A DNA stretch of 64,000 nt, taken from assembly GCA_005223085.1 (NCBI GenBank), contig NJBP01000005.1, forward strand, positions 2,815 through 66,814, read 5' to 3'. Shown one piece after another: positions 22,759 through 50,415 of this stretch. Position 1 is the first letter of the stretch; every line of letters starts with the position of its first letter. The position numbers and the translations under genes are program-made. Under the pieces are notes generated by a model. The model was not told where the DNA came from. It made no database searches and was given only the letters and a program-made list of their open reading frames with translations. The stretch comes from Candidatus Aerophobetes bacterium Ae_b3b. GTDB taxonomy: Bacteria; Aerophobota; Aerophobia; Aerophobales; AE-B3A.

Positions 22759-22970
22759 GAGATTTATACGCGTATCGAGGGACTTTGCCCGAAGGAGCCT
22801 TATATCAGCCACCTTAACGAGTCTTCGAGTTAAGGAAGAAGAAAGACGTGATGTCTGAGGAGCGGAGCGAGGAGTTTCACGTCTTTCCCGAGACGAGAAG
22901 ACGAGCAGAAACAATCGAAAGTCGATATACAGCGACGAAGGGGAACAGTCCCGAGATATCCTTGAGGAGG
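22759..22970 (+). repeat. structured intergenic element, copy A (abuts the recA start)
   Basis: Aligns with 31961-32218. Conserved hairpin GAAAGACGTGA(22841-22851)/TCACGTCTTTC(22877-22887). The ends TATCGAGGGAC (22773-22783) and GTCCCGAGATA (22948-22958) are complementary. The 3' end supplies GAGGAGG, 6 nt before the recA ATG. Confidence 0.75.
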
Positions 22971-24054: not shown

Positions 24055-25209
24055 ATGAATAAGATCAGCAAAATATTAATCCTTCTTGCTTCTTTACTCT
24101 TGTTCGCTTCTTCCGCAAAGGCCTATCAAGATTATGGAGTTGAGAAAGTAGGTTTTCACTCCTATCTCACCTATACCCGGATAGTTCTGGAGATATCTGG
24201 CGAAGTTGGTTACATTGTCAGGGATCTAACCAGTCCACCTCGATTGCTGATTAACCTTTATCCGGCTAAACTTACTTCTTTGGAGCGAAAAATTGATGTA
24301 AAAGATAGATTTATTAGGGGGCTTCGTCTCTCGCAGGATAGCAAACATGTGACCAGGGTCGTCCTGGATTTAACGAATTTTGAGTCTACCTATAATATCT
24401 TTTCCTTGAAGGGGCCTCATCGTCTAGTTATCGAGGTAAAAAGTCCGAAGAAAGATCCAATAGCGGATCTATTGAAACCACAAGGATTTCCTTACTATTT
24501 GCGTGAATCGGTTTCGGAGGAATACAGGAGAGTTTATAAAGTAATATTAGATCCTGGACATGGGGGGGAAGATCCGGGAGCAATTGGCCCCACTGGTTTA
24601 AAAGAGAAAGATGTTGCCCTTGCCGTGACCCTGGAGGTAGCTAATCTCTTAAAAGAGGAAGCAGGGATTGACATTTATCTAACCAGGACGGATGATTCTT
24701 TTATTCATCTGGATCTGAGGACAGAGTTGGCTAACCAATGGGGAGGGGATCTTTTTGTATCCATACATGCCAATGCAGCTTTTAACCAAAAGGCAAGCGG
24801 TATAGAGACTTTTTTTAATTCCCGGTACCCATATGGAGAAGGGGCAGCAGCAGTGGCGGCCAGAGAAAATACTTCTCTGGGAGCTGACGACGTTTCAGGG
24901 GAAATTAAGGCCATTCTCTGGGATTTAGTGCAGAATCGATATCGAGACGAAAGCAACGAATTATCCCATTTTGTGCAGAGGCAATTATGCCAGGCTATAG
25001 ACGTCGAGGATAGAGGGGTAAAATCAGCCGGATTTTATGTCCTAAGGGGAGCAGCCATGCCTGCTATTTTGGTAGAGATAGGATTTATCTCCAATCCCTG
25101 GGAGGAGCAAAAACTAAGAAAAGGTGAATTTAGAAAAAAAATTGCTCGGGGCATCTTTAGAGGAATAAAAGATTATCTTGAAAGTTATGATGAGAGATCA
25201 AGTAGGTAA
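24055..25209 (+). CDS. N-acetylmuramoyl-L-alanine amidase (Amidase_3) with N-terminal AMIN-like domain
   Basis: Signal peptide, 'ILDPGHGGEDPGAIG', 'VSIHANA', 'VLRGAAMPAILVEIGFISN'. Confidence 0.85.
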   Translation: MNKISKILILLASLLLFASSAKAYQDYGVEKVGFHSYLTYTRIVLEISGEVGYIVRDLTSPPRLLINLYPAKLTSLERKIDVKDRFIRGLRLSQDSKHVTRVVLDLTNFESTYNIFSLKGPHRLVIEVKSPKKDPIADLLKPQGFPYYLRESVSEEYRRVYKVILDPGHGGEDPGAIGPTGLKEKDVALAVTLEVANLLKEEAGIDIYLTRTDDSFIHLDLRTELANQWGGDLFVSIHANAAFNQKASGIETFFNSRYPYGEGAAAVAARENTSLGADDVSGEIKAILWDLVQNRYRDESNELSHFVQRQLCQAIDVEDRGVKSAGFYVLRGAAMPAILVEIGFISNPWEEQKLRKGEFRKKIARGIFRGIKDYLESYDERSSR

Positions 25210-25255
25210 ACCCTGTTAGATGATCACTACCTAACAGGGTAAATGAGAGGCTAAG

Positions 25256-25834
25256 TTGGCTTCACGCAAAAAGAGGCGAAAATATCTGTTAGTTTATATC
25301 CTCGTTGTAGTAGGGGTCTTTGTGGTGGGAGTATTGGTAGGTCCATTGCTCAGAGAAAAGGGATATCAGATTAAAGATTGGGTTATTCAGCCCCGTCCTC
25401 CTCGAGAGATGAAGGTGGTGAAACTGTACTTTTCTGATCCCCAAGCAGAACATCTCATCCTTGAGGAAAGAAAAGTGGTAGCCTTACCTGATATGAGTGA
25501 GGAGGCTAAAGAAATATTGAAAGAATTAATTAAAGGCCCTCTTGATAGCTCCCTTAAGCCAACCATTCCTCTTCAAACAGAGGTGGAAGATGTTTATTTG
25601 AAGGATGACTGTTTTTATGTAAATTTTTCTTTGGCTTTAAAAGAGAAGCATCCTGGAGGATCTAGCGGGGAACTACTTACTGTATACTCCATAGTTAATA
25701 CCCTCCTTATTAACTTTCCCTCCCAATCGCGGGTACAAATCTTAATCCAGGATAAACCTGTGGAAACTCTCGCCGGACACATTGATATTAGAAACCCTTT
25801 GCGCCAGAGACTCGATATTGCAAAGGAACCCTGA
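25256..25834 (+). CDS. GerMN domain-containing membrane-anchored protein
   Basis: N-terminal TM, 'VKLYFSD...LILEERKV', 'LKELIKGP', 'TLAGHIDI'. TTG start. The amidase-GerMN pairing is common. Confidence 0.55.
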   Translation: MASRKKRRKYLLVYILVVVGVFVVGVLVGPLLREKGYQIKDWVIQPRPPREMKVVKLYFSDPQAEHLILEERKVVALPDMSEEAKEILKELIKGPLDSSLKPTIPLQTEVEDVYLKDDCFYVNFSLALKEKHPGGSSGELLTVYSIVNTLLINFPSQSRVQILIQDKPVETLAGHIDIRNPLRQRLDIAKEP

Positions 25835-25838
25835 GAAG

Positions 25839-25982
25839 ATGAACTCCCGTTCAGAATCAGAAAGTGCAAGAATAGCTGTCTTTGACTCAGGTGTAGGAGG
25901 ACTTACTGTTGTTTCGGAAATAATGAAGCTTCTTCCTGGGGAGGGGAAGAGTCCCGAGATATTTCTTGATTTGGAAGGATAA
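25839..25982 (+). pseudogene. murI: glutamate racemase N-terminal fragment (truncated)
   Basis: 47 codons. 'RIAVFDSGVGGLTVVSEIMKLLPGE' matches the MurI N-terminal active-site region, after which the frame runs into the 19-nt repeat and stops. Full-length MurI is about 260 aa. Confidence 0.7.
25951..25969 (+). repeat. 19-nt dispersed motif GTCCCGAGATATTTCTTGA
   Basis: Exact copy, identical to 35049-35067. Lies at the point where murI similarity ends. Confidence 0.9.
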
Positions 25983-26001
25983 GGATAACTAAAGGATCAC
26001 C

Positions 26002-26679
26002 ATGTTTCAGGAGAAAAACTCAGTGATTTTCCAGGGAAAAGAATTTGCTTTTACCATTTTATGCAGCATCTTCATCGGGTCACTGGTGATTTCCGAGGTA
26101 TTGGCCAGTAAAATTGTTGCTCTAGGGGAGATCTACGTCCCGGCGGGAGTAGTTGCCTACGCGGTAACTTTTGCCATGACCGATACCATTGAAGAAATCT
26201 GGGGGAAGAGGTATGCCAGAGCCGTAGTGATTGGCGGACTTCTAACACTGGGTGTGGTTCTTTTTCTAATGTGGCTTGCCGTAATCTTGCCTTCTGCTCC
26301 ATTCTGGAAAGAAGAAAAAGCATTTACGCGTATTTTAGGAATAAAGGCAGGAGCAATCAGAATAACTATGGCTAGCATAGTTGCTTATTTTGTCAGCCAG
26401 TACCACGATGTCTGGGCCTTTAATTTTTGGAGACGGATCACCAGAGGACGATGGCTCTGGCTGCGTAATAACGCTTCCACCCTTGTTTCTCAGGCTATAG
26501 ATACTTCTCTGTTTATATCTTTAGCCTTCTATGGAGTTGTTCCCGTTGTGCCTTTAATTCTAGGACAGTATTTCGTTAAATTGTGTATTGCTCTCCTTGA
26601 CACTCCCCTGGTCTATCTCCTCGTCTACTGTGTGAGAGGGAAAACCACAGTGACCGAAGAGTCCCGCGGTGTTTCTTGA
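26002..26679 (+). CDS. yhhQ: queuosine-precursor transporter (YhhQ/DUF165, VUT family)
   Basis: 225-aa, 6-TM ORF with 'VPAGVVAYAVTFAMTDTIEEIWGKR' and 'NNASTLVSQAIDTSLF'. Confidence 0.7.
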   Translation: MFQEKNSVIFQGKEFAFTILCSIFIGSLVISEVLASKIVALGEIYVPAGVVAYAVTFAMTDTIEEIWGKRYARAVVIGGLLTLGVVLFLMWLAVILPSAPFWKEEKAFTRILGIKAGAIRITMASIVAYFVSQYHDVWAFNFWRRITRGRWLWLRNNASTLVSQAIDTSLFISLAFYGVVPVVPLILGQYFVKLCIALLDTPLVYLLVYCVRGKTTVTEESRGVS

Positions 26680-26745
26680 CAACTCTCCTTTTTTGTCTTA
26701 GAATTTATTTACCAATTCCGTCAAGCAGTTGCTAGGAGGCAGATT

Positions 26746-27918
26746 ATGATCAGTAAGGTGATAATGCCCAAGTTGGGAGAAACTATGGAGGAGGGAGAGA
26801 TTATCCAGTGGTTAAAACACCAGGGAGACAGAGTCAAGGAAGGAGAACCGCTCTTGGAAATTGCCACTGATAAGGCCAATATGGAGGTAGAGGCACTTTC
26901 TTCTGGATTCTTGAGAGAAATTGTTGCTCCGGCAGGTGAGATTGTACCAGTAACCAAAACCATTGCTTATATTGCCGATACTATGCAGGAAGAGATTTCT
27001 CAGGAGGCAGAGGCACCCGAGAAACCGGCTCAGAAAAAAGTCCCAGAAGAACCGCTCATCCAGTCACCTATTAAGGCCTCCCCCCTGGCCAAAAAGCTAG
27101 CCAGAGACTATGGGATTGACCTTTCTACTGTAAAGGGAAGTGGTCCAGGAGGAAGAGTGCTTAAGGAGGATGTAATTAAATTAGCCGAGGAAAAAGAAAC
27201 TGTCGCGGAAAAGGCAGTTTCTCTTTCGCGGATAGAAAAAGTCATGGTCCAGCGAATGGAGAAGAGCAAAAGGGAAATTCCCCATTTCTATCTTACTGTA
27301 GAAGTTGACTTCTCGAAATCCCAAGCCCTGCGAGATGATTTACTAAAAGAATTTGAGCAGAGAGAAAAAGTTCGACTTTCCTACACGGATCTATTAATTA
27401 AGTCTTGTGGCCGTGCTTTGAGTAAATTTCCCCGGGTAAATTCAACTTTCGAGGCCGGCAGAATCACTTCACACTCAGAGTTTAATGTAGGACGAGCTGT
27501 GGCTACACCCAAAGGGCTCATCGTCCCGGTGATTAAGGATGTAGATAAAAAAAATCTTTTCCAAATAGCTAGGAAAAGAAAAGAGTTGGTTAAAAAGGCA
27601 AATGAAGACCGTCTTTCTCTAGAGGAATTAGAGGGAGCCGCCTTCACTCTTTCTAACCTGGGAATGTTTGGAATTAAGACATTCGTTGCCATAATCAACC
27701 CTCCACAGGCATCTCTTCTAGCTACTGGAGAAATTAAAGAAAGGCCAGTGGCCATAGATAATAGAATAGAGATAAGGCCTATGATGGAGATGACTCTATC
27801 TTGCGATCATCGAGTGATGGATGGATACCTAGGAGCAAAATTCCTGCAGGAGATAAAGCGGGGATTGGAAAGGCCTTCTCTTTTATTAATTGAGATTGCT
27901 TCACTCCGTTCGCAATGA
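26746..27918 (+). CDS. 2-oxoacid dehydrogenase E2 (dihydrolipoamide acyltransferase)
   Basis: Lipoyl domain 'LLEIATDKANMEVEA', E3-binding 'SPLAKKLARDYGIDLSTVKGSGPGGRV', catalytic 'LSCDHRVMDG'. No E1 or E3 gene is adjacent. Confidence 0.85.
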   Translation: MISKVIMPKLGETMEEGEIIQWLKHQGDRVKEGEPLLEIATDKANMEVEALSSGFLREIVAPAGEIVPVTKTIAYIADTMQEEISQEAEAPEKPAQKKVPEEPLIQSPIKASPLAKKLARDYGIDLSTVKGSGPGGRVLKEDVIKLAEEKETVAEKAVSLSRIEKVMVQRMEKSKREIPHFYLTVEVDFSKSQALRDDLLKEFEQREKVRLSYTDLLIKSCGRALSKFPRVNSTFEAGRITSHSEFNVGRAVATPKGLIVPVIKDVDKKNLFQIARKRKELVKKANEDRLSLEELEGAAFTLSNLGMFGIKTFVAIINPPQASLLATGEIKERPVAIDNRIEIRPMMEMTLSCDHRVMDGYLGAKFLQEIKRGLERPSLLLIEIASLRSQ

Positions 27919-27965
27919 CCAGCGAGTGATCTCGCTCGTAATGACGTGGTTGAGTGAATACTTAG
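27897..27965. repeat. short variant of the MITE-like element (arms only)
   Basis: 'TGCTTCACTCCGTTCGCAATGA' and 'AATGACGTGGTTGAGTGAATACTTAG' resemble the left and right arms of copies at 2468 and 36764. The centre is replaced by the hairpin GCGAG-TGAT-CTCGC. Overlaps the last codons and stop of the E2 gene. Confidence 0.5.
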
Positions 27966-27977
27966 ATGGAGAGGGCC

Positions 27978-28616
27978 ATGTTTACCGGAATAATAGAGGA
28001 GATGGGGACAGTAGAAAAATTATGGATTGGCTCTTCTTATAGGTTGAGAATAAGAGCAAAGAAAGTATTGCCGGGAACCAAACCTTCCCACAGTATAGCG
28101 GTAGACGGGGTTTGTTTAACGGCGACTGAGGTAGACCGGGAAAGTTTCTCGGTCGAAATAATGGCTCAAACCCTGAATAAAACTAATTTATCTCTGATGA
28201 AAGAAGGAGATAAAGTCAACCTAGAAAGAGCGACATCTCTATCATCTCTCTTAGGGGGACATATAGTAACTGGGGATGTGGATGGAGTGGGCAGGATATC
28301 GAGAATAGATAAAAGGGTGGGGGAGACCGTAATGCAGATTGAATTTCTCCCACGTCTGGCAAAATATATAGTCAATCAAGGTCGTGTGTCTTTGGATGGG
28401 GTTAGTTTAACCGTAGCTGATTGTCGAGCTTCGAATTTTACCGTCCACCTTATTCCTTTTACCTTAAACAACACCACCCTGGGTCTAAAAAAAAGAGGGA
28501 ATTTGCTTAACCTGGAGGTAGATATAATTTCTAAATATATAGAGAAAATGATCCATAATCAAAGTGGTTCTGGCTCGAGAATAGATAGAGGATTTTTAAA
28601 AGCTATGGGGTATTGA
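27978..28616 (+). CDS. ribE: riboflavin synthase
   Basis: 'MFTGIIEEMGTV', 'SIAVDGVCLT', 'VSLDGVSLTV' (duplicated lumazine-binding repeats). ATG at 27978 preferred. Confidence 0.9.
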   Translation: MFTGIIEEMGTVEKLWIGSSYRLRIRAKKVLPGTKPSHSIAVDGVCLTATEVDRESFSVEIMAQTLNKTNLSLMKEGDKVNLERATSLSSLLGGHIVTGDVDGVGRISRIDKRVGETVMQIEFLPRLAKYIVNQGRVSLDGVSLTVADCRASNFTVHLIPFTLNNTTLGLKKRGNLLNLEVDIISKYIEKMIHNQSGSGSRIDRGFLKAMGY

Positions 28617-28683
28617 ACTGAAAACCAGAAAAGTGCCAATAAGAATTTGTAAGGTTCCCAAGTAATTTACAAGAGGTGAGATA

Positions 28684-29892
28684 ATGAAGTTTAATCCCAT
28701 AGATGAAATTATGAAGGACTTCAAAAAAGGTAAGATGGTGATCGTGGTGGACGACAAGGATAGAGAAAATGAGGGTGATCTTATAGTCCCCGCTTCCCAA
28801 GCCACTCCTGAGGTGATAAACTTTATGGCTAAATATGGAAGAGGGTTGATTTGTCTGGCTATCACTTCTGAGAGGGCCCGGGAGTTGGGGCTTAGTCCCA
28901 TGGTAAATGAAAACACCTCTCTCAAAGGGACTCCCTTTACTGTCTCCGTGGATGCCAAGCATAATACTACTACTGGAATATCTGCCTATGACCGAGCCCG
29001 GACTGTAGGAGTTCTCATTCACCCTCAGACTAAAGAGGAAGATCTGGCAAAGCCTGGTCATGTGTTCCCATTAATTAGTAAGAATGGAGGAGTTCTCGTA
29101 AGAGCCGGTCATACCGAGGCAGCGGTAGATTTAGCCAGATTAGCGGGATTTTACCCGGCAGGGGTTCTCTGTGAGATGATGGGAGAAGATGGCAGGATGG
29201 CCAGACTTCCTGAGCTTTTATCTTTCGCTGCTCACCATGGTTTGAAGATATGTAGCCTGGCCGACATCATATCATATCGTTGGAAGAAGGAAAAACTGGT
29301 TAAAAGAGAAGTTGTTACCGATCTTCCTACTCACTACGGGAATTTTAAACTCATCGCCTACAGGACTCTCCTCGAGGATAGGATTCATCTTGCTCTGATA
29401 AAAGGAAAAGTAAGAAATAAAGAGGATGTTCTGGTGAGGGTGCATTCTCAATGCCTTACGGGAGATGTTTTCAGATCCCTTCGCTGTGACTGCGGGGATC
29501 AGCTTGAGATTGCCTTATACATGATAGGAAAGGCAAGCCATGGCGTGGTACTTTACTTAAACCAGGAGGGGCGTGGAATCGGATTATTAAATAAGCTCAA
29601 AACATATGTGCTTCAGGACAGAGGGATGGATACGGTGGAGGCAAATCAGAAGCTTGGTTTTGAGCCAGATTTACGTAGTTATGGAATTGGAGCTCAGATC
29701 CTTGCCGATTTAGGACTTCACCGGATCAGACTTTTAACCAATAACCCTCGCAAAATAGTGGGTTTAGAGGGGTATGGGTTGGAGATTAGCGAACGCACTC
29801 CTTTAGAGATAAAGCCTAACCGCGTAAACAGGGAGTATTTGAAGACCAAGCAGAAGAAACTCGGTCACCTGCTGAGTTTCGATAAGGAATAG
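28684..29892 (+). CDS. ribBA: bifunctional 3,4-dihydroxy-2-butanone-4-phosphate synthase / GTP cyclohydrolase II
   Basis: '[14 protein letters not shown]', '[16 protein letters not shown]', '[24 protein letters not shown]', '[11 protein letters not shown]'. Confidence 0.95.
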
Positions 29893-29921
29893 TATTAAGT
29901 ACTAAGCATTAAGTACTAAGT

Positions 29922-30464
29922 GGTAGCCGCAGGCTTCAGCCTGCGTAGAGAAATGATAAACAGAAATGTTAGAGAAAAGAAACACCGGTTACCTCTGCAC
30001 TGCTACCTGGGGCAGGTAAGGGTAACCTTCACTCTTTGTATTGAAGACAAAAGACCCTTTTTTGTGGAAAAGGCAATAGTGGATAAGTTCATAGAAATCC
30101 TAAGAGAAGCGAAGGAAAAGTATAATTGTAAAAATTGGGTATATATGTTCATGCCAGATCATTTGCACGTCGTTAATGAAGGTATTTCAGACAGTTCTGA
30201 TTTATGGAAAATGATGAATTTTTTCAAACAAAAGACTGGTTTTTGGCTATCGCGGAATAAAAAAGGAACGAAATGGCAAAAAGATTTTTATGACCATGTT
30301 CATCGGAAAGAAGATGATTTAAAGAAGCACATAATCTACATTCTGGATAATCCAGTAAGAAAAGGGTTAGTCTCTGATTGGAAAGATTATCCTTCCAAAG
30401 GGTCACTGGATTTTAGCTTGGAAGATATTATTTCATGAAACGCAGGATAAATCCTGCGGCTACC
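29922..30464 (+). mobile_element. REP-RAYT unit (tyrosine transposase gene bracketed by inverted REP hairpins)
   Basis: REP-L is GGTAGCCGCAGGCTTCAGCCTGCG (29922-29945). REP-R is CGCAGGATAAATCCTGCGGCTACC (30441-30464), the reverse complement of the same head plus hairpin. The unit sits between ribBA and ribH. Confidence 0.8.
29953..30438 (+). CDS. REP-associated tyrosine transposase (IS200/IS605 TnpA-like Y1 HUH enzyme)
   Basis: HUH motif 'MPDHLHVV' and C-terminal '[32 protein letters not shown]' (catalytic Tyr region). ATG at 29953 is preferred to GTG at 29920, which lies inside REP-L. Confidence 0.75.
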
Positions 30465-30515
30465 AATTCAAAAAAGGCAAATATTTTTGACAATACCGCC
30501 GAATGGGAGGAAGTT

Positions 30516-30983
30516 ATGAAAAATTATAAAGGGAAGATAAGGGGTAAAGGACTAAGATTTGGAATAATAGTTTCACGTTTTAATGAGTTTGTCACTGAGA
30601 AACTTTTGGAAGGAGCCCTGGACGCACTCGAGAGGCATGAGGTGGAGGAAGAAAATATTGAGATTATTTGGGTTCCTGGTTCTTTTGAAATCTCGGCTCT
30701 AGCCTCAAAGCTAGCCAAAAAGGAAAGATTTAATGCTCTGATCTGCTTGGGGGCTATTATTCGGGGTGAGACACCTCATTTTGAGCTGATATCATCTCAA
30801 GTAGCTCGAGGAATCGCCACCTTAGCTTTAAAGGAAGAAATCCCCGTTATTTTTGGAGTCATTACTGCCGATACTTTGGAGCAGGCAATCGAGAGAGCAG
30901 GTACTAAAGCAGGAAACCGAGGTTGGAACGCAGCCGTGTCTGCTATGGAAATGGTGGATCTTTATCAACAGGTGCAGAAATAG
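30516..30983 (+). CDS. ribH: 6,7-dimethyl-8-ribityllumazine synthase
   Basis: '[20 protein letters not shown]', 'IWVPGSFEI', '[13 protein letters not shown]'. ATG at 30516 with a GGGAGG SD. The ORF-track start at 30435 reads through REP-R. Confidence 0.9.
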
Positions 30984-31888
30984 CTAGAGGAAATACAAAG
31001 AGGGCCAACACCAAGATCTGGACAGTTAAGAAGAGCCTCAAGTGGGCTACCCGGTATTTGGAAGAAAGAGGAATCGAGAATCCCTGCCTGACCTCGGAAC
31101 TTCTACTGAGTCAACTTTTACAGAAGAAACGTTTCCATCTTTATCTTGACGGGGATCGAGATCTTCCTGGTTCAGTTCGTACCCTTTTCCTAAATTTGGT
31201 CAAAAAGCGTGGTCAATATGTCCCCCTATCTTATCTTACCGGCAGCCAAGATTTCATGGGTTACAGTTTCAAGGTGAATCCGAGGGTCTACATACCCCGT
31301 CCTGAGACCGAGATATTAGTAGAAAAGGTTCTTGAAGTAACTAGTTTGCCAAGAGGAAGAGAATTTATTGCCGTTGATCTGGGAACGGGCTGTGGAAATA
31401 TTGCCATAACTTTAGCCAAGCAATTAGAAAGATCAAGGATCTGGGCGGTCGATATTTCACCCGAGTCTTTGGAAGTCGCCAGATGCAATGCCCAATTGCA
31501 TTATGTGGATAAAAAGGTTGAGTTTTTAAGGGGAGATTTATTTACTCCTCTTATCAGGCTAGGCTTAGAGAGAAGAGTTGATTTAGTAATTTCCAATCCT
31601 CCCTATGTAGCCTCCACTCAGATGAAGAATTTGCCACCTGAGGTAAGAAAAGAACCGAAGGTGGCTCTGGAAGGCGGGGAAGAAGGATTGAGTGTGCATA
31701 GAAGAATTATCTGGCAAGCTCCTCGTTTTTTGAATAGAGGAGGTCTTCTTGCTCTAGAGATTGGATGCGGTCAGGTCAAGATTATAAAGGATTTAATTTC
31801 GGCCCAACCTCAGCTTTTACCTCCTAAGATTGTCTCGGATTACCAAGGAAAGGAACGGGTAGTGCTTACAAGGAAAAGAAGTGATTAG
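30923..31888 (+). CDS. prmC: release-factor glutamine N5-methyltransferase
   Basis: '[11 protein letters not shown]' SAM motif and 'VISNPPYV' (NPPY). The start is uncertain: the TTG at 30923 overlaps ribH by 61 nt, and no canonical start occurs after the ribH stop. Confidence 0.8.
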
Positions 31889-31960
31889 TGGTCAGGGTTT
31901 AATGAAAAACCAAGAGAGTTACCTAAGGCCTTGATTTCTTGATCAATAGTTTCTTTTCTT

Positions 31961-32218
31961 GAGATTTAGGAATTTATACACTTGTCGAAAGACATTTTCT
32001 GGTCCGAAGGAGGCGCAGCCGGAGCCTTATAGGAGCTACCTTAACGAAGCTTCGAGTTGAGGAAAAAGAAAGACGTGATGTCTGAGGAGCAGAGCGACGA
32101 GTTTCACGTCTTTCCCGGCCGTTAAGGTGCCGCAGGCAACGAGAAGCTGAGCAGAAATAATAAAAGGCTACTATACAGCGACGGAAGAAAATTGTCCTGA
32201 GACATTTTTTTGAGGAGT
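31961..32218 (+). repeat. structured intergenic element, copy B (abuts the mrdA start)
   Basis: Same architecture as 22759-22970. Hairpin GAAAGACGTGA(32068-32078)/TCACGTCTTTC(32104-32114). Ends TGTCGAAAGAC (31983-31993) and GTCCTGAGACA (32194-32204). Carries extra sequence around 32117-32140. Confidence 0.75.
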
Positions 32219-32223
32219 AAATT

Positions 32224-33990
32224 TTGGTTCCAGTAAGAGGCAAAAGAAAGAGATTTGAGACAAGGATTAAGATTTTATGGGTTGTCATAGTCTGTAGTTT
32301 TCTCATTCTTCTGGCAAGGATAGCCTGGCTGCAATTAATAGAAGGAGAAAGATATCTTCGTATTTCTAAGAATTCTCGCCTTCAACTCCTTCCTCTTCCT
32401 TGTACCCGAGGTCTCATTTTGGATAGAAATGGTAAGAAGTTAACTCACAATGAGGCCTCATTTTCAGTAGGGGTAATTCCATCCAATGTAAGCAATCCAG
32501 ACCATCTTCTTGATCGTCTAGCTATTATCTTAAAGCTAGATAAAAAGGCTATTCTGGAAAGAATTCGCCGGGCCCCCAATCCTTTTAAACCTGTGGTGTT
32601 GAAAAAAAATGTGGGTATGTCTACCGTGACTTTTCTCCTGGAGAGAGAGGAAGAGTTTCCCGGAGTTGTCATTATTGCCCAACCAGTACGTACTTATCTT
32701 TACGGCGGACTCGCCTCTCATCTTCTTGGTCACCTGGGAGAGGTGAACCAAGCCGAGCTTGCCCTTAGTTCTGGCTATGGCATCGAGTTGGGAGATCTGG
32801 TGGGGAAGATGGGAGTAGAAAAGGTATGCAATAGATATCTACAAGGAGAAAAGGGAGGTAAACAAATAGAAGTAGATGCTCATGGCCGCGCCTTAAGAAC
32901 AATTTCCGAGAAAGATCCTGTCCCAGGTCATAGTCTCTATTTAACCATAGATCTTCGAATGCAGGAGATTGCTGAAAAAGAGTTGGGAGAAAGGAAAGGG
33001 GTGGTATTGATTGGTGATCCATATACCGGAGGGATCTTTGCTTTGGTGAGTTACCCTGGCTTTGATCCAAATCTTTTTTCCTGGGGTATATCAGAAAGTG
33101 AGTGGAATAGATTAAGAGATGAACCTTTGCATCCCCTGGAGAATCGAGCTACCAGGGGAGAATATCCTCTTGGTTCCGCTATTAAAGTCATAACTGCTTC
33201 AGCGGCTCTGGAGGAGGGAATTATTAGCAAGGAGGATACTTTCTTTTGTGGAGGGAATTTTACCATTGGTAACCGGGTGTTTAAGGGATGGAAAGAAGAA
33301 GGTCATGGGGAAATAAATCTGGAAGAGGCTATTATTCATTCCTGCAATGTCTACTTTTATCAACTGGGCTTGCGCCTGGGAGTAAAACGAATAATCCGAT
33401 ACGCTAGTCTCTTTGGTTTAGGGAAGCCCACCGGTATAGATCTTGGGTCTGAGAAGCCAGGGTTTTTACCCACTCGCGATTGGAAGAAGAAACACAAAGG
33501 GGAGGCCTGGTATGGAGGGGACACGGTCAATCTCTCCATTGGACAGGGGTATATCTTAGTTACCCCGGTTCAAATGCTTAAAGTCATCAGCGTTATAGCC
33601 AATGGAGGATATCTGATTAGGCCCTATTTGATAAAGAAAATAGTAAGTCCGAGAGGTGATCTTATTAAGGAATTTCAACCCCCAAAGATGGAAAGAGTTC
33701 CTCTTTCTTCAGCTACACTCAATTTTCTAAGAAGATCCTTAAGGGGCGTAGTGCGGGAAGGGACAGGGTGGCGGGCAGAAAGTAAAACAGTGGAAATTTC
33801 CGGGAAAACCGGTACGGCAGAGCTATCCGAAGGCGAGAAACCCCATAATTGGTTCATAGGCTATGCTTCATCTACTCATCTCCGTCTGGCTATCGTGGTT
33901 TTGGTAGAAAATCGAGAAGAAGATATACAGATTGCTCCCCAGATTGCCGGAAAAATTTTTTCCCAGATCTTCGAAAAAAATGTACCCTGA
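32224..33990 (+). CDS. mrdA: penicillin-binding protein 2 (elongasome transpeptidase)
   Basis: N-terminal TM, 'RGLILDRNGK', 'PLGSAIKV' (SxxK), 'SCN', 'SGKTGTA' (KTG). TTG start. Confidence 0.9.
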   Translation: MVPVRGKRKRFETRIKILWVVIVCSFLILLARIAWLQLIEGERYLRISKNSRLQLLPLPCTRGLILDRNGKKLTHNEASFSVGVIPSNVSNPDHLLDRLAIILKLDKKAILERIRRAPNPFKPVVLKKNVGMSTVTFLLEREEEFPGVVIIAQPVRTYLYGGLASHLLGHLGEVNQAELALSSGYGIELGDLVGKMGVEKVCNRYLQGEKGGKQIEVDAHGRALRTISEKDPVPGHSLYLTIDLRMQEIAEKELGERKGVVLIGDPYTGGIFALVSYPGFDPNLFSWGISESEWNRLRDEPLHPLENRATRGEYPLGSAIKVITASAALEEGIISKEDTFFCGGNFTIGNRVFKGWKEEGHGEINLEEAIIHSCNVYFYQLGLRLGVKRIIRYASLFGLGKPTGIDLGSEKPGFLPTRDWKKKHKGEAWYGGDTVNLSIGQGYILVTPVQMLKVISVIANGGYLIRPYLIKKIVSPRGDLIKEFQPPKMERVPLSSATLNFLRRSLRGVVREGTGWRAESKTVEISGKTGTAELSEGEKPHNWFIGYASSTHLRLAIVVLVENREEDIQIAPQIAGKIFSQIFEKNVP

Positions 33991-35047
33991 TTCTCGACCA
34001 TACGATTGGCTACTTCTATTGGCGGTCTTAGGTCTTTCTCTGGGTGGACTTTTCCACCTTTATACGATTTCTTTTGTTCATCAGTCTTATTATTTTTTTC
34101 GCCAGATAGCCTGGGTGGGGATAGGATTGGGACTGCTAGTTCTATTTTCTTATCTTCGGATCAGTCTATGGGAGAAGGTAGCTCATCTTTTTTATTTGGC
34201 AATTTTTATTACCCTCCTTTTGGTATTATTTAGAGGAGAAGGTGCACATGGTGCACAGAGGTGGTTCAGGCTGGGGACATTTAGTTTCCAGCCCTCTGAG
34301 TTTGCTAAACTCAGCCTCATCATTGTTTTAGCTAAGTTGCTGGCTGCCAAGGATAATATAGGATGGAGACAAATAGGTCTATCTTTTTGTTTTACTTTCC
34401 CTTTCCTTATCTTAGTCGCCCTGCAACCTGATCTGGGAAGTGCTCTCATTTTGCTTCCACTTTGGCTGGGGATGCTCTTTTTGGCCGGTGTCTCTCCGAG
34501 AAAGCTTCTTACCATTCTGGGAATAGGGGCATCTTCCTTTCCATTTTTTTATTTATTGTTACGTCCCTATCAAAAGATGCGTATTCTGACCTTTTTGAAT
34601 CCCGGTCGAGATCCTCTTGGCACAGGGTGGGCCGTCCTACAGTCTAAGGTTGCTCTAGGTTCAGGAAAATTAGTAGGCAAAGGTATTGGAGGAGCTCTTC
34701 ATACCCAACTCAGTTTTCTTCCTCAACCCTTTACGGATTTTGTATTCGCCAGCATTGGTGAAGAGTGGGGATTTGTTGGAACAGGGATTTTTATAGGACT
34801 GTATTTTGTCATTATAACTAGAGGCATGAAGATAGCTAGACAATCTACCAATGGTTTTACCAGGCTGGTAAGTGGTGGTCTGATCATTCTATTATTTTTC
34901 CAGGTTTTTATTACCGTGGGAATGACGATAGGGATCATGCCTGTTACCGGTATGCCTTTACCTCTGGTGAGCTATGGGGGAAGTTCTATTATAATGTTTT
35001 TTCTGGGGATGGGATTATTGCTCAGTATGAAGAGATTCGGGGAATAG
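33980..35047 (+). CDS. rodA: SEDS-family peptidoglycan glycosyltransferase RodA
   Basis: 'FSFQPSEFAKL', 'QPDLGSALI', 'LPQPFTDFVFASIGEEWGF', 'MPLPLVSYGGSS'. ATG at 33980 overlaps the mrdA stop. Confidence 0.9.
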   Translation: MYPDSRPYDWLLLLAVLGLSLGGLFHLYTISFVHQSYYFFRQIAWVGIGLGLLVLFSYLRISLWEKVAHLFYLAIFITLLLVLFRGEGAHGAQRWFRLGTFSFQPSEFAKLSLIIVLAKLLAAKDNIGWRQIGLSFCFTFPFLILVALQPDLGSALILLPLWLGMLFLAGVSPRKLLTILGIGASSFPFFYLLLRPYQKMRILTFLNPGRDPLGTGWAVLQSKVALGSGKLVGKGIGGALHTQLSFLPQPFTDFVFASIGEEWGFVGTGIFIGLYFVIITRGMKIARQSTNGFTRLVSGGLIILLFFQVFITVGMTIGIMPVTGMPLPLVSYGGSSIIMFFLGMGLLLSMKRFGE

Positions 35048-35048
35048 A

Positions 35049-35067
35049 GTCCCGAGATATTTCTTGA
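35049..35067 (+). repeat. 19-nt dispersed motif GTCCCGAGATATTTCTTGA
   Basis: Exact copy starting 2 nt after the rodA stop. Its TTGA forms part of the TTGACA -35 box. Confidence 0.9.
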
Positions 35068-35091
35068 CAGTTTTATATCCTTCTGTATATT
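35064..35091 (+). promoter_or_regulatory. sigma70-like promoter (TTGACA-16-TATATT)
   Basis: TTGACA 35064-35069 and TATATT 35086-35091, about 190 nt upstream of the leuC start. Confidence 0.45.
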
Positions 35092-35186
35092 GAATGCACC
35101 TGAGGTATAGAATTTCAATAATTTCTCTGAATTGTTATCAAGTAAACCTTGGCAATCGAGATATCAGAAAAAAAAGAGGGGAGCAG

Positions 35187-35281
35187 GCTCGACTTGCTCG
35201 AGCGAAGCGAGAGTCGGCTTTGCCGATCGAGCCGTCGAGGGGGGATATTTCCCCCCTCGAGTATCTTGGTGGGGGATGGGA
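35187..35281 (+). promoter_or_regulatory. hairpin-rich 5' leader of leuC with a possible SD-sequestering switch
   Basis: Hairpins GCTCGA/TCGAGC (35187-35203) and TCGGC-TTT-GCCGA (about 35213-35227). A further 11-bp stem TCGAGGGGGGA/TCCCCCCTCGA (35235-35260, loop TATT). The C6 tract could alternatively pair with the G-rich SD at 35268-35280. Confidence 0.4.
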
Positions 35282-36562
35282 ATGACTTCTGGTTTCACCA
35301 TGCCAATGACCATTACTGAGAAAATCCTAGCTTCTCATTCTGGAACCACCGAGGTGAAAGAAGGAGAATTTGTCGAGGCTCAAGTCGATCTTGCATTTGC
35401 TAATGACATTACTGCTCCCTTGGCCATAAAGAAGTTTGAGGAGTGGGATGGACAGCGAGTTTTTGATTCAGAAAAAGTGGCTTTTGTACTCGATCATTTC
35501 ACACCCAATAAGGATGTAATCACGGCAGACCAATGCAGATTGGTCCGGGAATTTGCGCAGTGCCAAAATATCACCCATTATTTTGAGGCAGGAGCCTGCG
35601 GCATAGAGCATGTTTTGCTCCCGGAAAAGGGACTGGTTCTCCCGGGAGATCTGGTAATTGGAGCTGACTCTCATACCTGTACTGCTGGAGCTTTGGCTGC
35701 CTTTGCCAGTGGAGTAGGCAGTACAGATCTAGCTGCTGTCATGATCACCGGTAAGATCTGGCTTAGGGTCCCCTCAACCATTAGGTTGACATATCATGGT
35801 GAACTTCAGCCATGGACTAGTGCCAAGGATCTGATCCTTTATACAATTGGGGATATAGGCGTTGATGGAGCATCTTATCGGAGTATGGAATTCACCGGCA
35901 GGGTTCTCTCCAGGCTACGCATGGCGGGGCGATTTACCATGTGTAACATGGCTGTAGAAGCCGGAGCCAAGAATGCCATTGTCGAGCCAGACGAGGTTAC
36001 CTTAAATTATATTAAGGGGAGAGGAGAAAGGGATTTCAGCCTTTATTACAGTGATCCTGAGGCTGAATATCTGGAGACGAGGGATTACAATGTTAGGAAA
36101 ATTGAGCCTCAGGTGGCCTTACCGTCTCTACCCGCCAATGTTAGGGGAATATCAGAAGTGGAATCAGTAGCCATCGATCAGACGGTTATAGGTAGTTGTA
36201 CTAATGGTCATCTGGAAGACCTAAGAGTTGCTGCAGGAATATTGAAAGGAAAGAAGGTTCATTCAGAGGTTAGGCTGATAATTGTTCCAGCTACTCCTTT
36301 GGTTTACCTCGAGGCTCTAAAAGAAGGATTACTTCAGATTTTCTCAGAGGCAGGTGCACTGATTAGTCCTCCCACCTGTGGACCTTGCATTGGAGGACAT
36401 ATGGGCGTACTGGGGAAAGGGGAGGTGGCAATTGCCACCACCAATCGTAATTTTAGAGGAAGAATGGGTCATCCTGAAAGTGAAGTTTATCTAGCTGGTC
36501 CAGCAATAGCCGCTGCTTCATCAATTAAGGGCAGGATTGCAGGTCCTGATGAGATAAAATAA
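35282..36562 (+). CDS. leuC: 3-isopropylmalate/homoaconitate dehydratase large subunit (aconitase family, archaeal-type LeuC/HacA)
   Basis: 'MTITEKILASHSG', 'DHFTPNKD', 'GADSHTCTAGALAAFASGVGSTD', 'GSCTNG', 'PTCGPCIGGHMG'. No small-subunit gene follows. Confidence 0.85.
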   Translation: MTSGFTMPMTITEKILASHSGTTEVKEGEFVEAQVDLAFANDITAPLAIKKFEEWDGQRVFDSEKVAFVLDHFTPNKDVITADQCRLVREFAQCQNITHYFEAGACGIEHVLLPEKGLVLPGDLVIGADSHTCTAGALAAFASGVGSTDLAAVMITGKIWLRVPSTIRLTYHGELQPWTSAKDLILYTIGDIGVDGASYRSMEFTGRVLSRLRMAGRFTMCNMAVEAGAKNAIVEPDEVTLNYIKGRGERDFSLYYSDPEAEYLETRDYNVRKIEPQVALPSLPANVRGISEVESVAIDQTVIGSCTNGHLEDLRVAAGILKGKKVHSEVRLIIVPATPLVYLEALKEGLLQIFSEAGALISPPTCGPCIGGHMGVLGKGEVAIATTNRNFRGRMGHPESEVYLAGPAIAAASSIKGRIAGPDEIK

Positions 36563-36688
36563 AAGAGTGAAGAGAATGATGCCGGTAGCAGAAAGAATCA
36601 GAAGAATTCCTCCTTTGAGAAAAGAATGCAAGAAGCGGTGGAACGAATTGGGTCAGTATTAACCTGATACCCACAGGAAAAATTCGTC

Positions 36689-36717
36689 TTGACAGTTGGG
36701 AGAGGTTTTGTTAAAAT
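36689..36717 (+). promoter_or_regulatory. sigma70-like promoter (TTGACA-17-TAAAAT)
   Basis: TTGACA 36689-36694 and TAAAAT 36712-36717. The downstream transcript would include MITE copy 2 before the coiled-coil gene at 36977. Confidence 0.45.
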
Positions 36718-36763
36718 AACTTTAAAATCGAAGATATTCGACATACACATAAATAGGTGGGCG

Positions 36764-36882
36764 TGTAAATGCTCAGTAAACGCCGTGTCACATTGAATTT
36801 TCAGGGTAGCCGCACCCTTTAGGGTGCGCAGGCTCTGAGCCTTGCGACTACCAAAAATGACGGGGTTCACTGAATACTTACG
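36764..36882. repeat. MITE-like palindromic element with REP-doublet core (copy 2)
   Basis: Arms near-identical to 2468-2610. REPs at 36805-36828 and 36827-36852. Flanked by direct TGGGCG (36758-36763, 36883-36888). Confidence 0.75.
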
Positions 36883-36976
36883 TGGGCGTTAGGTAAAAAG
36901 CTGATGATTTGTTGGGAAAGGAGGTGAAAGTAAGGTTTTTTCAAAAATACTTGACGAACGGAGGAGGTTCTGAGAA

Positions 36977-37849
36977 ATGTTAACCAAGACTTTTTTGAAA
37001 AGATGTGGGATGGTAGGATTATTAGCATTCGGTATTCTCTGGACTCAGATGCCGGTTAAGGCCCAAGAAAAGTCGGTGAGAGAACAACTCGCAGAAGCTA
37101 AAGCGGCAATTGCTGATCAGGTATGGGTAATCGAGCAGATGAAGGATAATTTCTTCAAAGTAACCGGCCAACTAGAGACAGAGATCAAAAAGCTAAGAGC
37201 AATCAATATCGAACAAGCCAGAAAGATTGAAGAGGTCACCAATGTCTATTCGAGAAAAATTCAAGAGTTGGGAGGTGAACTGGATCGTCTTAAGGCAGCG
37301 TACACTAATCTCGAGGCTGTCAATGTTGAGCAGGCTCAAACCATCAAGCAGATCACCGATAACTACTTTGAGGTAACCGGGAAGCTTGGTGAGGAGCTTG
37401 CTATACTCGAGGCTGCCAATGCTGAGCAGGCTCAAACCATCAAGCAGATCACCGATAATTTCTTTAAGGTAACTGGAGAACTCAACAGCAAACTGGGTTC
37501 ACTCGAGGCTGCCAATGCTTCACTCGAGGCTGCCAATGCTGAGCAGGCTCAAACCATCAAGCAGATCACCGATAATTTCTTTAAGGTAACTGGAGAACTC
37601 AACAGCAAACTGGATTCACTCGAGGCTGCCAATGCTTCACTCGAGGCTGCCAATACCGAGCAGGCTCAAACCATCGAACAGATGAGGGATAATTTCTTGA
37701 AGGTAACAGGTAAGCTAAACGAAGAGGCAAATATGCTCAAGGTGACCATAGACGAGCAAGCTGCCACCATCAAAAAACTTAAAGGTCAGAGAATGCTTCT
37801 CGGTCTTGGATTCCTAATAGCCACAGCTGTATTAATAAGTTGTGACTAA
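36977..37849 (+). CDS. secreted repetitive coiled-coil protein with C-terminal membrane anchor
   Basis: Signal-like N-terminus ('LLAFGILWTQMPVKAQE'). Six or more copies of '..EQAQTIKQITDNFFKVTGEL..' and a C-terminal 'MLLGLGFLIATAVLISCD'. Confidence 0.6.
   Translation: MLTKTFLKRCGMVGLLAFGILWTQMPVKAQEKSVREQLAEAKAAIADQVWVIEQMKDNFFKVTGQLETEIKKLRAINIEQARKIEEVTNVYSRKIQELGGELDRLKAAYTNLEAVNVEQAQTIKQITDNYFEVTGKLGEELAILEAANAEQAQTIKQITDNFFKVTGELNSKLGSLEAANASLEAANAEQAQTIKQITDNFFKVTGELNSKLDSLEAANASLEAANTEQAQTIEQMRDNFLKVTGKLNEEANMLKVTIDEQAATIKKLKGQRMLLGLGFLIATAVLISCD
37310..37715 (+). repeat. in-frame tandem repeats (96-nt then 117-nt units)
   Basis: 'CTCGAGGCTGCCAATGCTGAGCAGGCTCAAACCATCAAGCAGATCACCGATAA...' recurs at 37406, 37523 and 37640, a 117-nt period. 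Units 2 and 3 are nearly identical; a diverged unit starts at 37310. Confidence 0.9.
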
Positions 37850-38081
37850 GATCATTTGAGAATGACGTGGAAAGAGCCGATTTAATGAAACGTATTTCCT
37901 CTGTTGTAAGACCATTGGAGTTTCAATAAAATTCCTATGGCTAAAAAAAACAACATTTAGAGGACAAGACGTTTGAGGTTAGGCTCATATAAAGAATGAG
38001 TAGTGTTTCAATAAAAATGATAGGTTGTTATTATGGATGTGGGAATCATTTGGTAAATAAGTCTTCAAGGGGGTGAAGAAG

Positions 38082-38942
38082 ATGCTTAGGAATGCTGGAA
38101 TAGGAATCTTAGTTTTGGGAACCGGATTGTTTTTGATGAGCGGCATTGGATTAGCCGGGCAGTCTTCCATGGTAAACCTAGAGGAAGCCTTGGCCCAATG
38201 GGAGGGACTTCAGAAGGAAGTCGTTCAGACCGGAAAAATTGCAGCAGAAGCAAAAGAACTTTCTGTAGATACGGTATTGAGAGCTGCTGAGTTTAAGGAA
38301 ATTGTACTGGCCAAGCTGGGGCTGTGGCGAGCAAAAATGGCGGAAGGACTCATGACGACCATAGAAGCAAGAGAAATAGCCCGTAGAGCAGAAGAACAGA
38401 TGAAAATTAATAAGAAACTACAGGGAGATATGGCTACTCTACAAGGAGATGTGACTACTCTACAGGGAGATATGACTACTGTGCAGGAAAAAGTAAAAGG
38501 TCATGAAAAGATCCATCAGGTTCTGAAGAAAGATGTGAAGGATCTTCAGACCAGTGTTTCCGTGGCTAAAGAAATGGCCGCCACTGCAAAAATGGAGGCT
38601 GATCAGGCTAGAAAGGAAATCAAACAATTAGCAAGAGATACACAGGAGAAGACAGATCTATTATTTGCCAAGCTAAACAGTCTGGAAAAGAGGGTAAGAG
38701 CCCTAGAACAGCGAGTGGGAAAAAAACCTCTTAAACTTAAGCCTAAAAAACTCTACCCGGTGAAAAAAATCGGGAAGCTTTATGAAGTGAAGAAAGGTGA
38801 GAGTCTCTGGCGTATCTCAGGACACAAAGATGTTTACAACGACCCTTCCAAATGGAAAAAGATATACGAGGCTAACAAGAATAAGATTGCTAATCCGAAT
38901 GTTGTCTATCCAGGTCAGCGATTGGTAATACCTCCGGAATAA
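38082..38942 (+). CDS. secreted coiled-coil protein with C-terminal LysM peptidoglycan-binding domain
   Basis: N-terminal hydrophobic segment, a long heptad-rich middle containing 'LQGDMATLQGDVTTLQGDMTTVQ' (21-nt x3 at 38418-38486). C-terminal LysM 'YEVKKGESLWRISG...IYEANKNKIANPNVVYPGQRLVIP'. Confidence 0.7.
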   Translation: MLRNAGIGILVLGTGLFLMSGIGLAGQSSMVNLEEALAQWEGLQKEVVQTGKIAAEAKELSVDTVLRAAEFKEIVLAKLGLWRAKMAEGLMTTIEAREIARRAEEQMKINKKLQGDMATLQGDVTTLQGDMTTVQEKVKGHEKIHQVLKKDVKDLQTSVSVAKEMAATAKMEADQARKEIKQLARDTQEKTDLLFAKLNSLEKRVRALEQRVGKKPLKLKPKKLYPVKKIGKLYEVKKGESLWRISGHKDVYNDPSKWKKIYEANKNKIANPNVVYPGQRLVIPPE

Positions 38943-38988
38943 ATAAGGAGGTGTAGCAGACAGAAAAGATAAGGTATTTCCCCGGCCT

Positions 38989-39204
38989 TCAGGTTTGTTT
39001 GGAGGGTGGTTGTTGATACTTTTGTTGGAACTTTTTTATTCTTCCTCCGCTGTCAAGAAATTTCTGTTTACCAGTAAAGAAAGGATGGCAACGGGAGCAT
39101 ATTTCTACCCGCAAGTTCTGCTTGGTAGACCTTGTCTTATATTCTGCACCACAGGCACATCTAATAATTGTCTCCTGGTAAGGGGGGTGTATTTCTTTCT
39201 TCAT
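38989..39204 (-). CDS. rpmE: 50S ribosomal protein L31
   Basis: '[19 protein letters not shown]...[28 protein letters not shown]' (Zn-ribbon type). Confidence 0.95.
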
Positions 39205-39213
39205 GTTATTCTC

Positions 39214-50397: not shown

Positions 50398-50415
50398 GAC
50401 TATGACTTCGTTAGA

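Follow-up and report, generated by a model that had tools for sequence, protein, structure and literature searches.

Within a 64,000-nucleotide stretch of the genome of Candidatus Aerophobetes bacterium Ae_b3b (contig NJBP01000005.1, positions 2,815 to 66,814; hereafter the window), the riboflavin genes ribBA and ribH are separated by a gene for a REP-associated tyrosine transposase (RAYT), bracketed by two inverted repetitive extragenic palindromic (REP) hairpins. A first-pass annotation made from the sequence alone had placed a 161-amino-acid (aa) open reading frame (ORF) between ribBA, which ends at 29892, and ribH, whose ATG lies at 30516, and had read it as a RAYT inserted within a rib operon; the ORF lies there, and comparison with relatives supports the insertion. 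The features of the junction, in window positions, are listed below; labels such as L185 are ours for the contigs and loci compared.

28684-29892, forward strand: ribBA (DHBP synthase / GTP cyclohydrolase II; Pfam PF00926 and PF00925)
29893-29920, forward strand: tandem 14-nt repeat ATTAAGTACTAAG(C/T), outside the mobile unit
29921-30497, forward strand: mobile REPtron unit of 577 bp, comprising left REP, RAYT gene, right REP and a 33-nt right-end segment
29922-29945, forward strand: left REP, GGTAG-C-CGCAGGC-TTCA-GCCTGCG, with GTAG foot, 1-nt spacer, perfect 7-bp stem and 4-nt loop
29953-30438, forward strand: RAYT (tnpA-REP) gene, 161 aa
30441-30464, reverse strand: right REP, inverted, the minus strand reading GGTAGCCGCAGGATTTATCCTGCG
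30465-30497, forward strand: right-end segment of the unit, AATTCAAAAAAGGCAAATATTTTTGACAATACC, common to L185
30498-30515, forward strand: native spacer remnant and ribH Shine-Dalgarno sequence, GCCGAAT GGGAGGAAGTT, kept from the uninterrupted junction (alignment of L011, L012 and L201)
30516-30983, forward strand: intact ribH (lumazine synthase; PF00885, 192.9 bits)

The listed ORF runs from 29920 to 30438 on the forward strand, and its conserved ATG is at 29953, where the starts of homologues (MINRN, MVNRH, MGNKN) align. The protein passes the profile searches for RAYTs, scoring 90.2 bits against NCBIfam NF047646 REP_Tyr_transpos (curated cut-off 80) and 32.4 bits against Pfam PF01797, Y1_Tnp (cut-off 23); against NF033573 transpos_IS200 it reaches 20 bits, below the cut-off of 55. 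Escherichia coli TnpAREP (4ER8) is its sole significant relative among solved structures (phmmer E = 2e-6), and pairwise alignment sets H70 and H72 on E. coli H59 and H61, and Y129 and N133 on Y115 and N119. In the E. coli enzyme the two histidines form the HUH motif, the tyrosine is catalytic and the asparagine is a ligand of the metal (PMC3479197). The HUH motif, already recognized as PDHLHV at first pass, is present as PDH70-L-H72V with both histidines invariant among 42 aligned homologues, and in the same alignment Y129 and N133 are invariant within HIIYILDNP, where Y129-I-L-D-N133-P134 conforms to the class-2 Y-x3-N-P motif (defined in PMC6006769). By its alignment with E. coli Y115, Y129 of YILDNP is the predicted catalytic tyrosine. 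The first-pass annotation had instead drawn attention to WQKDFYDH; this motif is present, its tyrosine is not the catalytic one, and the position is a tryptophan in E. coli TnpAREP. It overlaps a conserved block (W108, Q109, D114, H115 and R118) whose counterparts in E. coli TnpAREP touch the GTAG guide (PMC6006769).

A structural model points the same way. The AlphaFold2 (AF2) prediction made with 42 homologues (pLDDT 89.8, pTM 0.85) has 4ER8 as its top Foldseek match in the PDB (TM-score 0.71, root-mean-square deviation 2.5 Å over 140 columns), with TM-scores of only about 0.52 against IS200/IS605 TnpA structures. The ratio of nonsynonymous to synonymous substitution rates (dN/dS) is about 0.1 against relatives, indicating that the protein is under purifying selection. 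From the profiles, the 4ER8 and 42-sequence alignments, the AF2 model and dN/dS, we judge 29953-30438 to encode an intact class-2 RAYT/TnpAREP in which all of the predicted catalytic residues are present. The 64-kb window holds one RAYT copy and 906 kb of related contigs another, at a different locus.

The hairpins predicted at first pass at 29922-29945 and 30441-30464 are there, hug the gene closely, and recur elsewhere in the window: the left REP ends 7 nt before the RAYT ATG and the right one begins 2 nt past its stop. They fold as CGCAGGC-TTCA-GCCTGCG (left) and CGCAGGA-TAAA-TCCTGCG (right), each with a 7-bp stem and a 4-nt loop (fold z-scores of the two arms, -3.3 and -3.1), and belong to a 29-nt inverted repeat around the gene (29918-29946 with 30440-30468) that is 86% complementary. 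The sequence GGTAGCCGCAGG with at most one mismatch was observed three times against 0.10 expected by chance, and CGCAGGN6CCTGCG three times against 0.02. At L001 the right-REP segment ACGCAGGATAAATCCTGCGGCTACCAA is identical to that of the window though the RAYT is only 75% identical and the gene dS exceeds 1. Beyond the right REP, TTTGACAATAC also follows in L008 and L022 (RAYTs 71-74% identical); as a family-wide feature it was rejected, being found at 2 of 81 loci, the closest relatives only, which is the overall background rate, and it appears to be a right-end feature of this sub-clade only. A literature search for the REP sequence GTAGCCGCAGG returned irrelevant matches only. Separately, L008 carries at 735-845, downstream of its 74% identical RAYT, three tandem REP copies in the same orientation at 42-nt spacing, in which a 69-aa ORF made of REP sequence was called.

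The gene block around the junction consists, by Pfam assignment, of an E2 acyltransferase gene (26746-27918), ribE (Lum_binding), ribBA, ribH (DMRL_synthase), prmC and the PBP2 gene. The closest named relative of ribBA comes from an Aerophobetes metagenome-assembled genome (81% identical), and contigs whose ribBA is 81-91% identical keep the order E2-ribE-ribBA-ribH-prmC-PBP2-rodA with no RAYT; the RAYT is an insertion into this otherwise conserved block. Their junctions differ in detail. ribBA and ribH overlap by ATGA in L011, are 14 nt apart in L013, and in L012 are separated by a 168-bp palindromic element, again with no RAYT. L201, which is collinear with window positions 25746-39504 at 94-97% DNA identity, reads ...GATAAGAAATAA-47 nt-GGGAGGAAGCTATG at the junction and lacks the RAYT. 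On the other side of this presence/absence polymorphism stands L005, an independent contig with a RAYT 99% identical to ours and the same filled junction, so that the arrangement in the window is not an assembly artefact.

The cassette also occupies a second, unrelated locus. By blastn, positions 4391-4967 of L185 match window positions 29921-30497 at 98.3% over 577 nt with unrelated flanks, and a scan of related metagenome contigs gave 96.9% aa identity between the two RAYTs. The unit's neighbours there are a class II aminoacyl-tRNA synthetase gene on one side and ilvE-ilvC on the other. The GGTAG foot of the left REP marks the beginning of the shared segment, whose end lies 33 nt past the right REP (...TTTTTGACAATACC), and no direct repeat flanks the segment at the rib site or in L185. 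Transposition of the IS200/IS605 HUH/Y1 type makes no target duplication, and its absence at both sites is what that chemistry predicts. A pair of 8-mers, TAAGGAAT and TACCGAAT (6/8 matching), had been entertained as a duplication around the unit and was dropped because the boundaries fixed by L185 lie elsewhere. Compared across these contigs, the sequences show that the cassette has relocated. As an observation on the second locus, L132, a 94% identical relative of L185 that lacks the RAYT unit there, has between the aminoacyl-tRNA synthetase gene and ilvE (5140-5800, minus strand) two small overlapping ORFs of toxin-antitoxin-like appearance followed by a transposable element of the miniature inverted-repeat type (MITE) whose target duplication matches at 7/8; like ribBA|ribH, this junction is hypervariable.

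The 14-nt tandem repeat upstream of the cassette had been noted as a duplication at first pass. The repeat is real (a repeat scan gives 29891-29904 and 29905-29918, 93% identical), but as a target duplication of the cassette it is ruled out, since the unit common to L185 starts downstream of it, at 29921/29922. The left flank of the cassette, tandem repeat included, aligns to an internal part of the RAYT-less palindromic element of L012 (shuffle p = 0.016), and the cassette sits at the break in this alignment; the repeat thus probably survives from an older palindromic element, now decayed, at ribBA|ribH. The TAG stop of ribBA also falls within sequence that is missing from L011. The most economical history would have two steps, in which the overlap of ribBA and ribH was first broken up by an older palindromic element and the 577-bp cassette later entered the remains of that element, after the split from L201 (about 97% DNA identity).

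This history bears on how the genes are expressed. The first-pass annotation had argued that the rib genes must be co-transcribed through the RAYT or have been uncoupled; the translational coupling of ribBA and ribH was lost before the RAYT arrived, given the RAYT-less 47-nt spacer of L201, and transcription through the insertion seems the likelier state. A scan of 27700-31200 found no terminator-like site and promoter-like sites only at chance level, with none inside the cassette; the TTGACA at the right end has no usable -10 element at any of the three loci inspected. Upstream of the RAYT ATG there is only a weak GAGA, the left hairpin abuts the start codon and the right hairpin lies 2 nt past the stop. 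With the co-orientation of the genes, these features suggest that RAYT transcripts most likely come from read-through out of ribE-ribBA and that they are poorly translated; ribH keeps its own ribosome-binding site. No further ORF between ribBA and ribH appears in the ORF list, and there is no adjacent tnpB. The absence of ribD and of a flavin mononucleotide (FMN) riboswitch, remarked on at first pass, is borne out within the window: the deaminase zinc motif (H[AS]E...PCxxC) is missing from all six window frames, the riboswitch family RF00050 has no window match at the Rfam gathering score and none at E <= 1 in 25000-31200, and, with the ribE start taken at MFTGII (27978), 59 nt separate the E2 gene from ribE. 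Relatives that lack the insertion likewise have neither ribD nor an FMN riboswitch beside their rib genes, so these absences are a trait of the lineage and not an effect of the insertion.

Homology with E. coli TnpAREP and with the group 3 enzymes discussed below predicts that the RAYT would recognize its GTAG foot and hairpin strand-specifically, in single-stranded DNA, and would then cut and rejoin with a metal held by the HUH histidines (H70/H72) and Y129 as the nucleophile.

Searches with the RAYT recovered 915 relatives at E <= 0.001 in a metagenome protein collection, and 532 matches in species-representative genomes were confirmed as relatives. Locus anatomy was counted on the 80 best RAYT loci of these 532. 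They come from more than 12 phyla, including Desulfobacterota, Clostridia, WOR-3, Omnitrophota, Elusimicrobiota and Planctomycetota, with further hosts among Nitrospirota, Ignavibacteriota, Bacteroidota, Uhrbacteria and others; the species that carries the rib cassette is not represented in this set of 80. GTAG hairpins lie within 200 nt of the RAYT at 72 of the 80 loci and on both sides, feet outward, at 44. The dominant REP has the stem CGCAGGC and a TTYA loop (TTTA or TTCA) and is nearly the same across phyla; a second subtype, CGCAACC or CGCACCC, is often paired with it, as in bacterial interspersed mosaic elements (BIMEs). The RAYT is co-oriented with both neighbours at 48 of 68 loci, against a baseline of 48%, for which the loci and the crude gene caller were the same (p = 1.5e-4), and intra-operon positions inspected include nuoK|nuoL, lolD|lolE, hsdM|hsdS, mod|res, GH2|GH3 and a pair of paralogous kinases. 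RAYTs of this family often lie between co-oriented, functionally linked genes, which parallels the classical intercistronic location of REPs.

Cognate REPs are also found away from the RAYT. In the window, GGTAGYCGCA occurs outside the flanking pair at 2510 (+), 2571 (-), 36805 (+), 36843 (-) and 63801 (+). Across 662 kb (80 related contigs and the window) we counted 186 GTAG hairpins, some of them chance occurrences, and the cognate ones are mostly inside MITEs. The dispersed elements of the window are:

2470-2609, forward strand: MITE with imperfect terminal inverted repeats (TIRs) and an internal REP pair at 2510-2533 (+) and 2557-2580 (-)
27919-27965, forward strand: decayed MITE arm (AATGACGTGGTTGAGTGAATACTTA and a different hairpin), kept at the same E2|ribE junction in L110
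36765-36881, forward strand: MITE of the same family as the 2.5 kb copy, with an internal REP pair
63801-63822, forward strand: truncated REP (GGTAGCCGCAACCTTAAGGTG...), left over from a bare REP doublet whose intact form occupies the orthologous L132 site

Full MITEs are 114-149 bp long and non-coding, with imperfect TIRs (GTAAATGCTCAGTAAAC... / ...GTTCACTGAATACTTAC; as inverted repeats, GTAAATGCTCAGTAAAC / GTAAGTATTCAGTGAAC) and an internal REP pair with its feet outward, and the MITE arm AATGACGNGGTTNANTGAATACTTA occurs in at least 120 metagenome contigs. The 36.8 kb copy is framed by a perfect 8-bp target-site duplication, GTGGGCGT, at 36757-36764 and 36882-36889, and L201 retains its empty site with a single GTGGGCGT; the 8-mers flanking the 2.5 kb copy, ATACAGTG and GTACAGGG, match at 6 of 8 positions. 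The 8-bp flanks match at seven or more positions for 52 of 66 copies, versus 2.5% in shuffled pairings. TIRs, 8-bp duplications and an empty site together indicate that the MITEs owe their movement to an enzyme whose staggered cuts are 8 bp apart, and such duplications are characteristic of DDE-type transposases and not of HUH enzymes. In our proposed scheme, most cognate REPs would travel in pairs inside the 114-149-bp MITEs, spread by this second, DDE-type transposase. No autonomous partner of the MITEs was found: a search for one gave 22 TIR pairs 0.6-5 kb apart, which were judged to be neighbouring MITEs with their interiors uninspected. In long MITE subfamilies an extra REP, identical to the RAYT left REP at 24 of 24 positions, is nested in an older REP, and this may be a trace of RAYT activity.

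The first-pass annotation had taken the RAYT to be the autonomous source of copies at 2.5, 27.9, 36.8 and 63.8 kb. Cognate REP pairs are indeed present in the 2.5 and 36.8 kb elements, but these elements are TIR MITEs with 8-bp duplications; the 63.8 kb site does hold a GTAG REP, but as the truncated remnant of a bare doublet; and the 27.9 kb site has no GTAG REP at all, sharing only the arm AATGACGNGGTTNANTGAATACTTA with the MITEs. Independently, the last codons and stop of the E2 gene (27886-27918, ...IEIASLRSQ*) apparently derive from a decayed MITE arm, GAGATTGCTTC...CGCAATGA, which resembles a second MITE 'shell' arm in L095, L096, L127 and L158. The idea that the rib cassette itself sits in a MITE shell of the 2.5/36.8 kb family was rejected, the local alignments being marginal (p = 0.05-0.06; 0.38 for the right flank in the window).

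Among described systems, the locus is a REPtron in the sense of Ton-Hoang, Siguier and co-workers, nearest in form to group 3, nearest among solved structures to E. coli TnpAREP, and not an insertion sequence of the IS200/IS605 family. The group 3 REPtrons (Quentin subclass 2.5) include REPtron Sm of S. maltophilia, REPtron Mb of Marinomonas and the RAYT/REPIN systems of P. fluorescens SBW25. Subclass 2.5 is characterized by DH[LF]H, WQ and YI[VI]ANP motifs, a median length of about 151 aa, and REPs that are short and perfect, the GTAG lying 0-2 nt from the stem (PMC6006769, PMC8266576). Our RAYT resembles subclass 2.5, the equivalent of Bertels group 3, in having DHLH, WQ, Y-x3-NP, a length of 161 aa and an aspartate at the position of E. 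coli E100, and its REPs resemble those of group 3 in being short, perfect palindromes with GTAG 1 nt from the stem, a combined foot, spacer and stem of 12 nt (published range 10-13 nt), and paired, inverted orientation. Unlike group 3, the tyrosine motif here is YILDNP rather than YI[VI]ANP; the RAYT comes from an uncultured Aerophobetes-like bacterium rather than from a xanthomonad or pseudomonad, and belongs to a clade that spans more than 12 phyla with nearly the same REP; cassettes lie inside operons; and most REP pairs are in MITEs with target duplications.

The E. coli K-12 REPtron (TnpAREP/YafM, 4ER8, group 2) is the best match in both sequence and structure among solved structures: HUH motif, catalytic tyrosine and asparagine ligand align, inverted GTAG REPs flank the gene and the REPs are intercistronic. 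The pairing of two REP subtypes, here CGCAGGC with CGCACCC or CGCAACC, likewise recalls the y and z REPs of E. coli BIMEs. Unlike the E. coli enzyme, to which it is 21% identical, our RAYT lacks the C-terminal tail with the E161 ligand and has K137 in place of H123; unlike the E. coli REPs, ours are short perfect hairpins without a bulge, and the gene lies within a biosynthetic operon. With IS200/IS605 elements such as IS608 and ISDra2 the unit shares the HUH/Y1 fold, a hairpin-framed gene, the lack of target duplication, and asymmetric ends, the left at the hairpin foot and the right 33 nt past the hairpin; it differs from them in its inverted rather than direct hairpins, Y-x3-NP motif, sub-cut-off IS200 profile score, apparently low copy number and lack of tnpB. 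The window MITEs resemble IS66-family elements in that their TIRs start with GTAAATG / GTAAGTA and come with 8-bp target duplications, IS66 elements having inverted repeats that start with GTAA... and 8-bp direct repeats (PMC11946415). Unlike DDE-derived bacterial MITEs, those studied here have as their core a GTAG REP pair cognate to the RAYT. An IS66 origin, suggested by the GTAA ends and the 8-bp duplication, is only a lead.

On balance we consider it likely that a compact REPtron recently entered the ribBA|ribH junction, that it is probably expressed by read-through, and that a second, DDE-type transposase spread the REPs carried in MITEs, with the RAYT presumably acting on the element that encodes it. 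Several points weigh against this view. Relative to L201 the rib junction is not a clean insertion, the 29-nt left flank differing from the L201 spacer, and recombination or replacement may have occurred there. The second site in L185 may reflect transfer between strains rather than transposition in one genome, and two known sites are too few to define a target motif or cleavage position. Some RAYT copies may be decaying, as in L005 (1564-2094), whose 99% identical variant has lost its stop (TGA to TCA), giving 176 aa, and carries W143G at a family-invariant position. The subclass placement, made by motifs and REP shape, is best called group-3-like. A passive relocation, by recombination between repeat-rich junction elements or as in-trans cargo of the MITE TIR/8-bp system, would account for the replaced stretch of 29-32 nt on the left side relative to L201; it also draws on the weak likeness of the rib flanks to MITE arms (p about 0.05), on an L132 and L134 MITE that ends at the very nucleotide where the L185 unit ends, and on the demonstrable activity of MITEs in this lineage. 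Yet the segment common to both sites starts exactly at the GGTAG foot and has no MITE-type terminal repeats, neither site shows an 8-bp duplication, and the MITE-arm similarity is not significant, so we regard passive relocation as rather unlikely.

A different objection is that the RAYT itself copied the elements at 2.5, 27.9, 36.8 and 63.8 kb. The REPs inside MITEs do match those flanking the RAYT (2557-2580, on the minus strand, agrees with the left REP at 23 of 24 positions), the nested 24/24 REP of the long MITEs looks like an insertion at the level of the REP, and bare REP doublets exist. The dispersed units nonetheless have TIRs, 8-bp duplications and a natural empty site where the RAYT unit has no duplication, and the 27.9 kb site is without a GTAG REP; we think this account improbable. 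That the RAYT is instead domesticated, vertically inherited and fixed here for a housekeeping-like maintenance of REPs, itself immobile, would fit the single copy in the 64-kb window, the dN/dS of about 0.1, the upstream gene conserved at three Planctomycetota loci (L029, L035 and L040) and the mostly single-copy, vertically inherited nature of groups 2 and 3 (PMC5581495). It sits poorly with the junctions left empty in L201 (97% DNA identity), L011, L012 and L013, with the 577-bp unit at the unrelated L185 locus, and with RAYTs 65-75% identical that carry the same REP in other phyla and other contexts, and we give it little credence. Least probable of all, and close to negligible, is an ordinary IS200/IS605 insertion sequence with a canonical TnpA, whatever the Pfam Y1_Tnp match, the hairpin-framed layout and the lack of target duplication might suggest: NF033573 scores 20 bits against a cut-off of 55, tnpB is not adjacent, the hairpins are inverted and GTAG-tagged, the motif is Y-x3-NP and not Y-x3-Q (PMC6006769), and the AF2 model is nearer to 4ER8 than to the TnpA structures of IS608, ISDra2 or IS200. 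Going beyond our preferred reading of a recently arrived REPtron, we tentatively raise a broader one, which we find possible though less than probable: that this RAYT clade is a still-autonomous, minimal HUH transposon of about 0.58 kb that moves within and between phyla with a near-invariant GTAG hairpin, inserts without target duplication into hairpin-rich operon junctions, relies on host read-through, and has had its REP pair captured by a DDE-type MITE in the Aerophobetes-like lineage, where the spread of REPs would by now be mostly independent of the RAYT.

The window holds other repeats of its own. A second intergenic family, of about 165-185 nt, has copies at 22794-22959 and 32021-32205 that are 91% identical over their first 97 nt, with hairpins CCTTAAC...GTTAAGG and GAAAGACGTGA...TCACGTCTTTC and no Rfam match; one copy lies directly upstream of the PBP2 gene, and related copies occur in L128, L143, L148 and L113. 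A dispersed 20-22-nt motif, AGAGTCCCGAGATATTTCTTGA, is found at 25948-25969, 26658-26679, 35046-35067, 50413-50434, 57310-57329 (-) and 22939-22959, in intergenic positions or at gene 3' ends and in 4 of 5 cases 54-119 nt upstream of the next gene. It is frequent in related contigs, where one MITE (L106) has inserted into it, and may be either regulatory or an end of the second repeat family. Coding sequence at 7455-8785 and 37130-37749 contains in-frame tandem repeats (three units of 453 nt, four of 117 nt) that presumably encode repeated protein domains. The sole Rfam family in the window is a transfer-messenger RNA gene at 45326-45684 (-) (RF00023, 184 bits).

RAYTs are usually described as immobile, domesticated and vertically inherited, and to our knowledge their movement in vivo has hardly been seen. 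Here a known kind of element has been caught moving, through close relatives that show the rib site empty or a second site filled. The filled and empty alleles and the second site (98%) fix the ends of the unit, from the GGTAG foot to 33 nt past the right hairpin (...GACAATACC), and thereby provide concrete substrates for cleavage assays. Also of interest are the near-identity of the REP over many phyla and the packaging of REP pairs in MITEs. REP pairs that sit in MITEs with 8-bp duplications can be spread by another transposition chemistry, and REP copy number need not report RAYT activity. Finally, the locus shows that a transposase gene can be accommodated within an essential vitamin operon, here between two cistrons that once overlapped.

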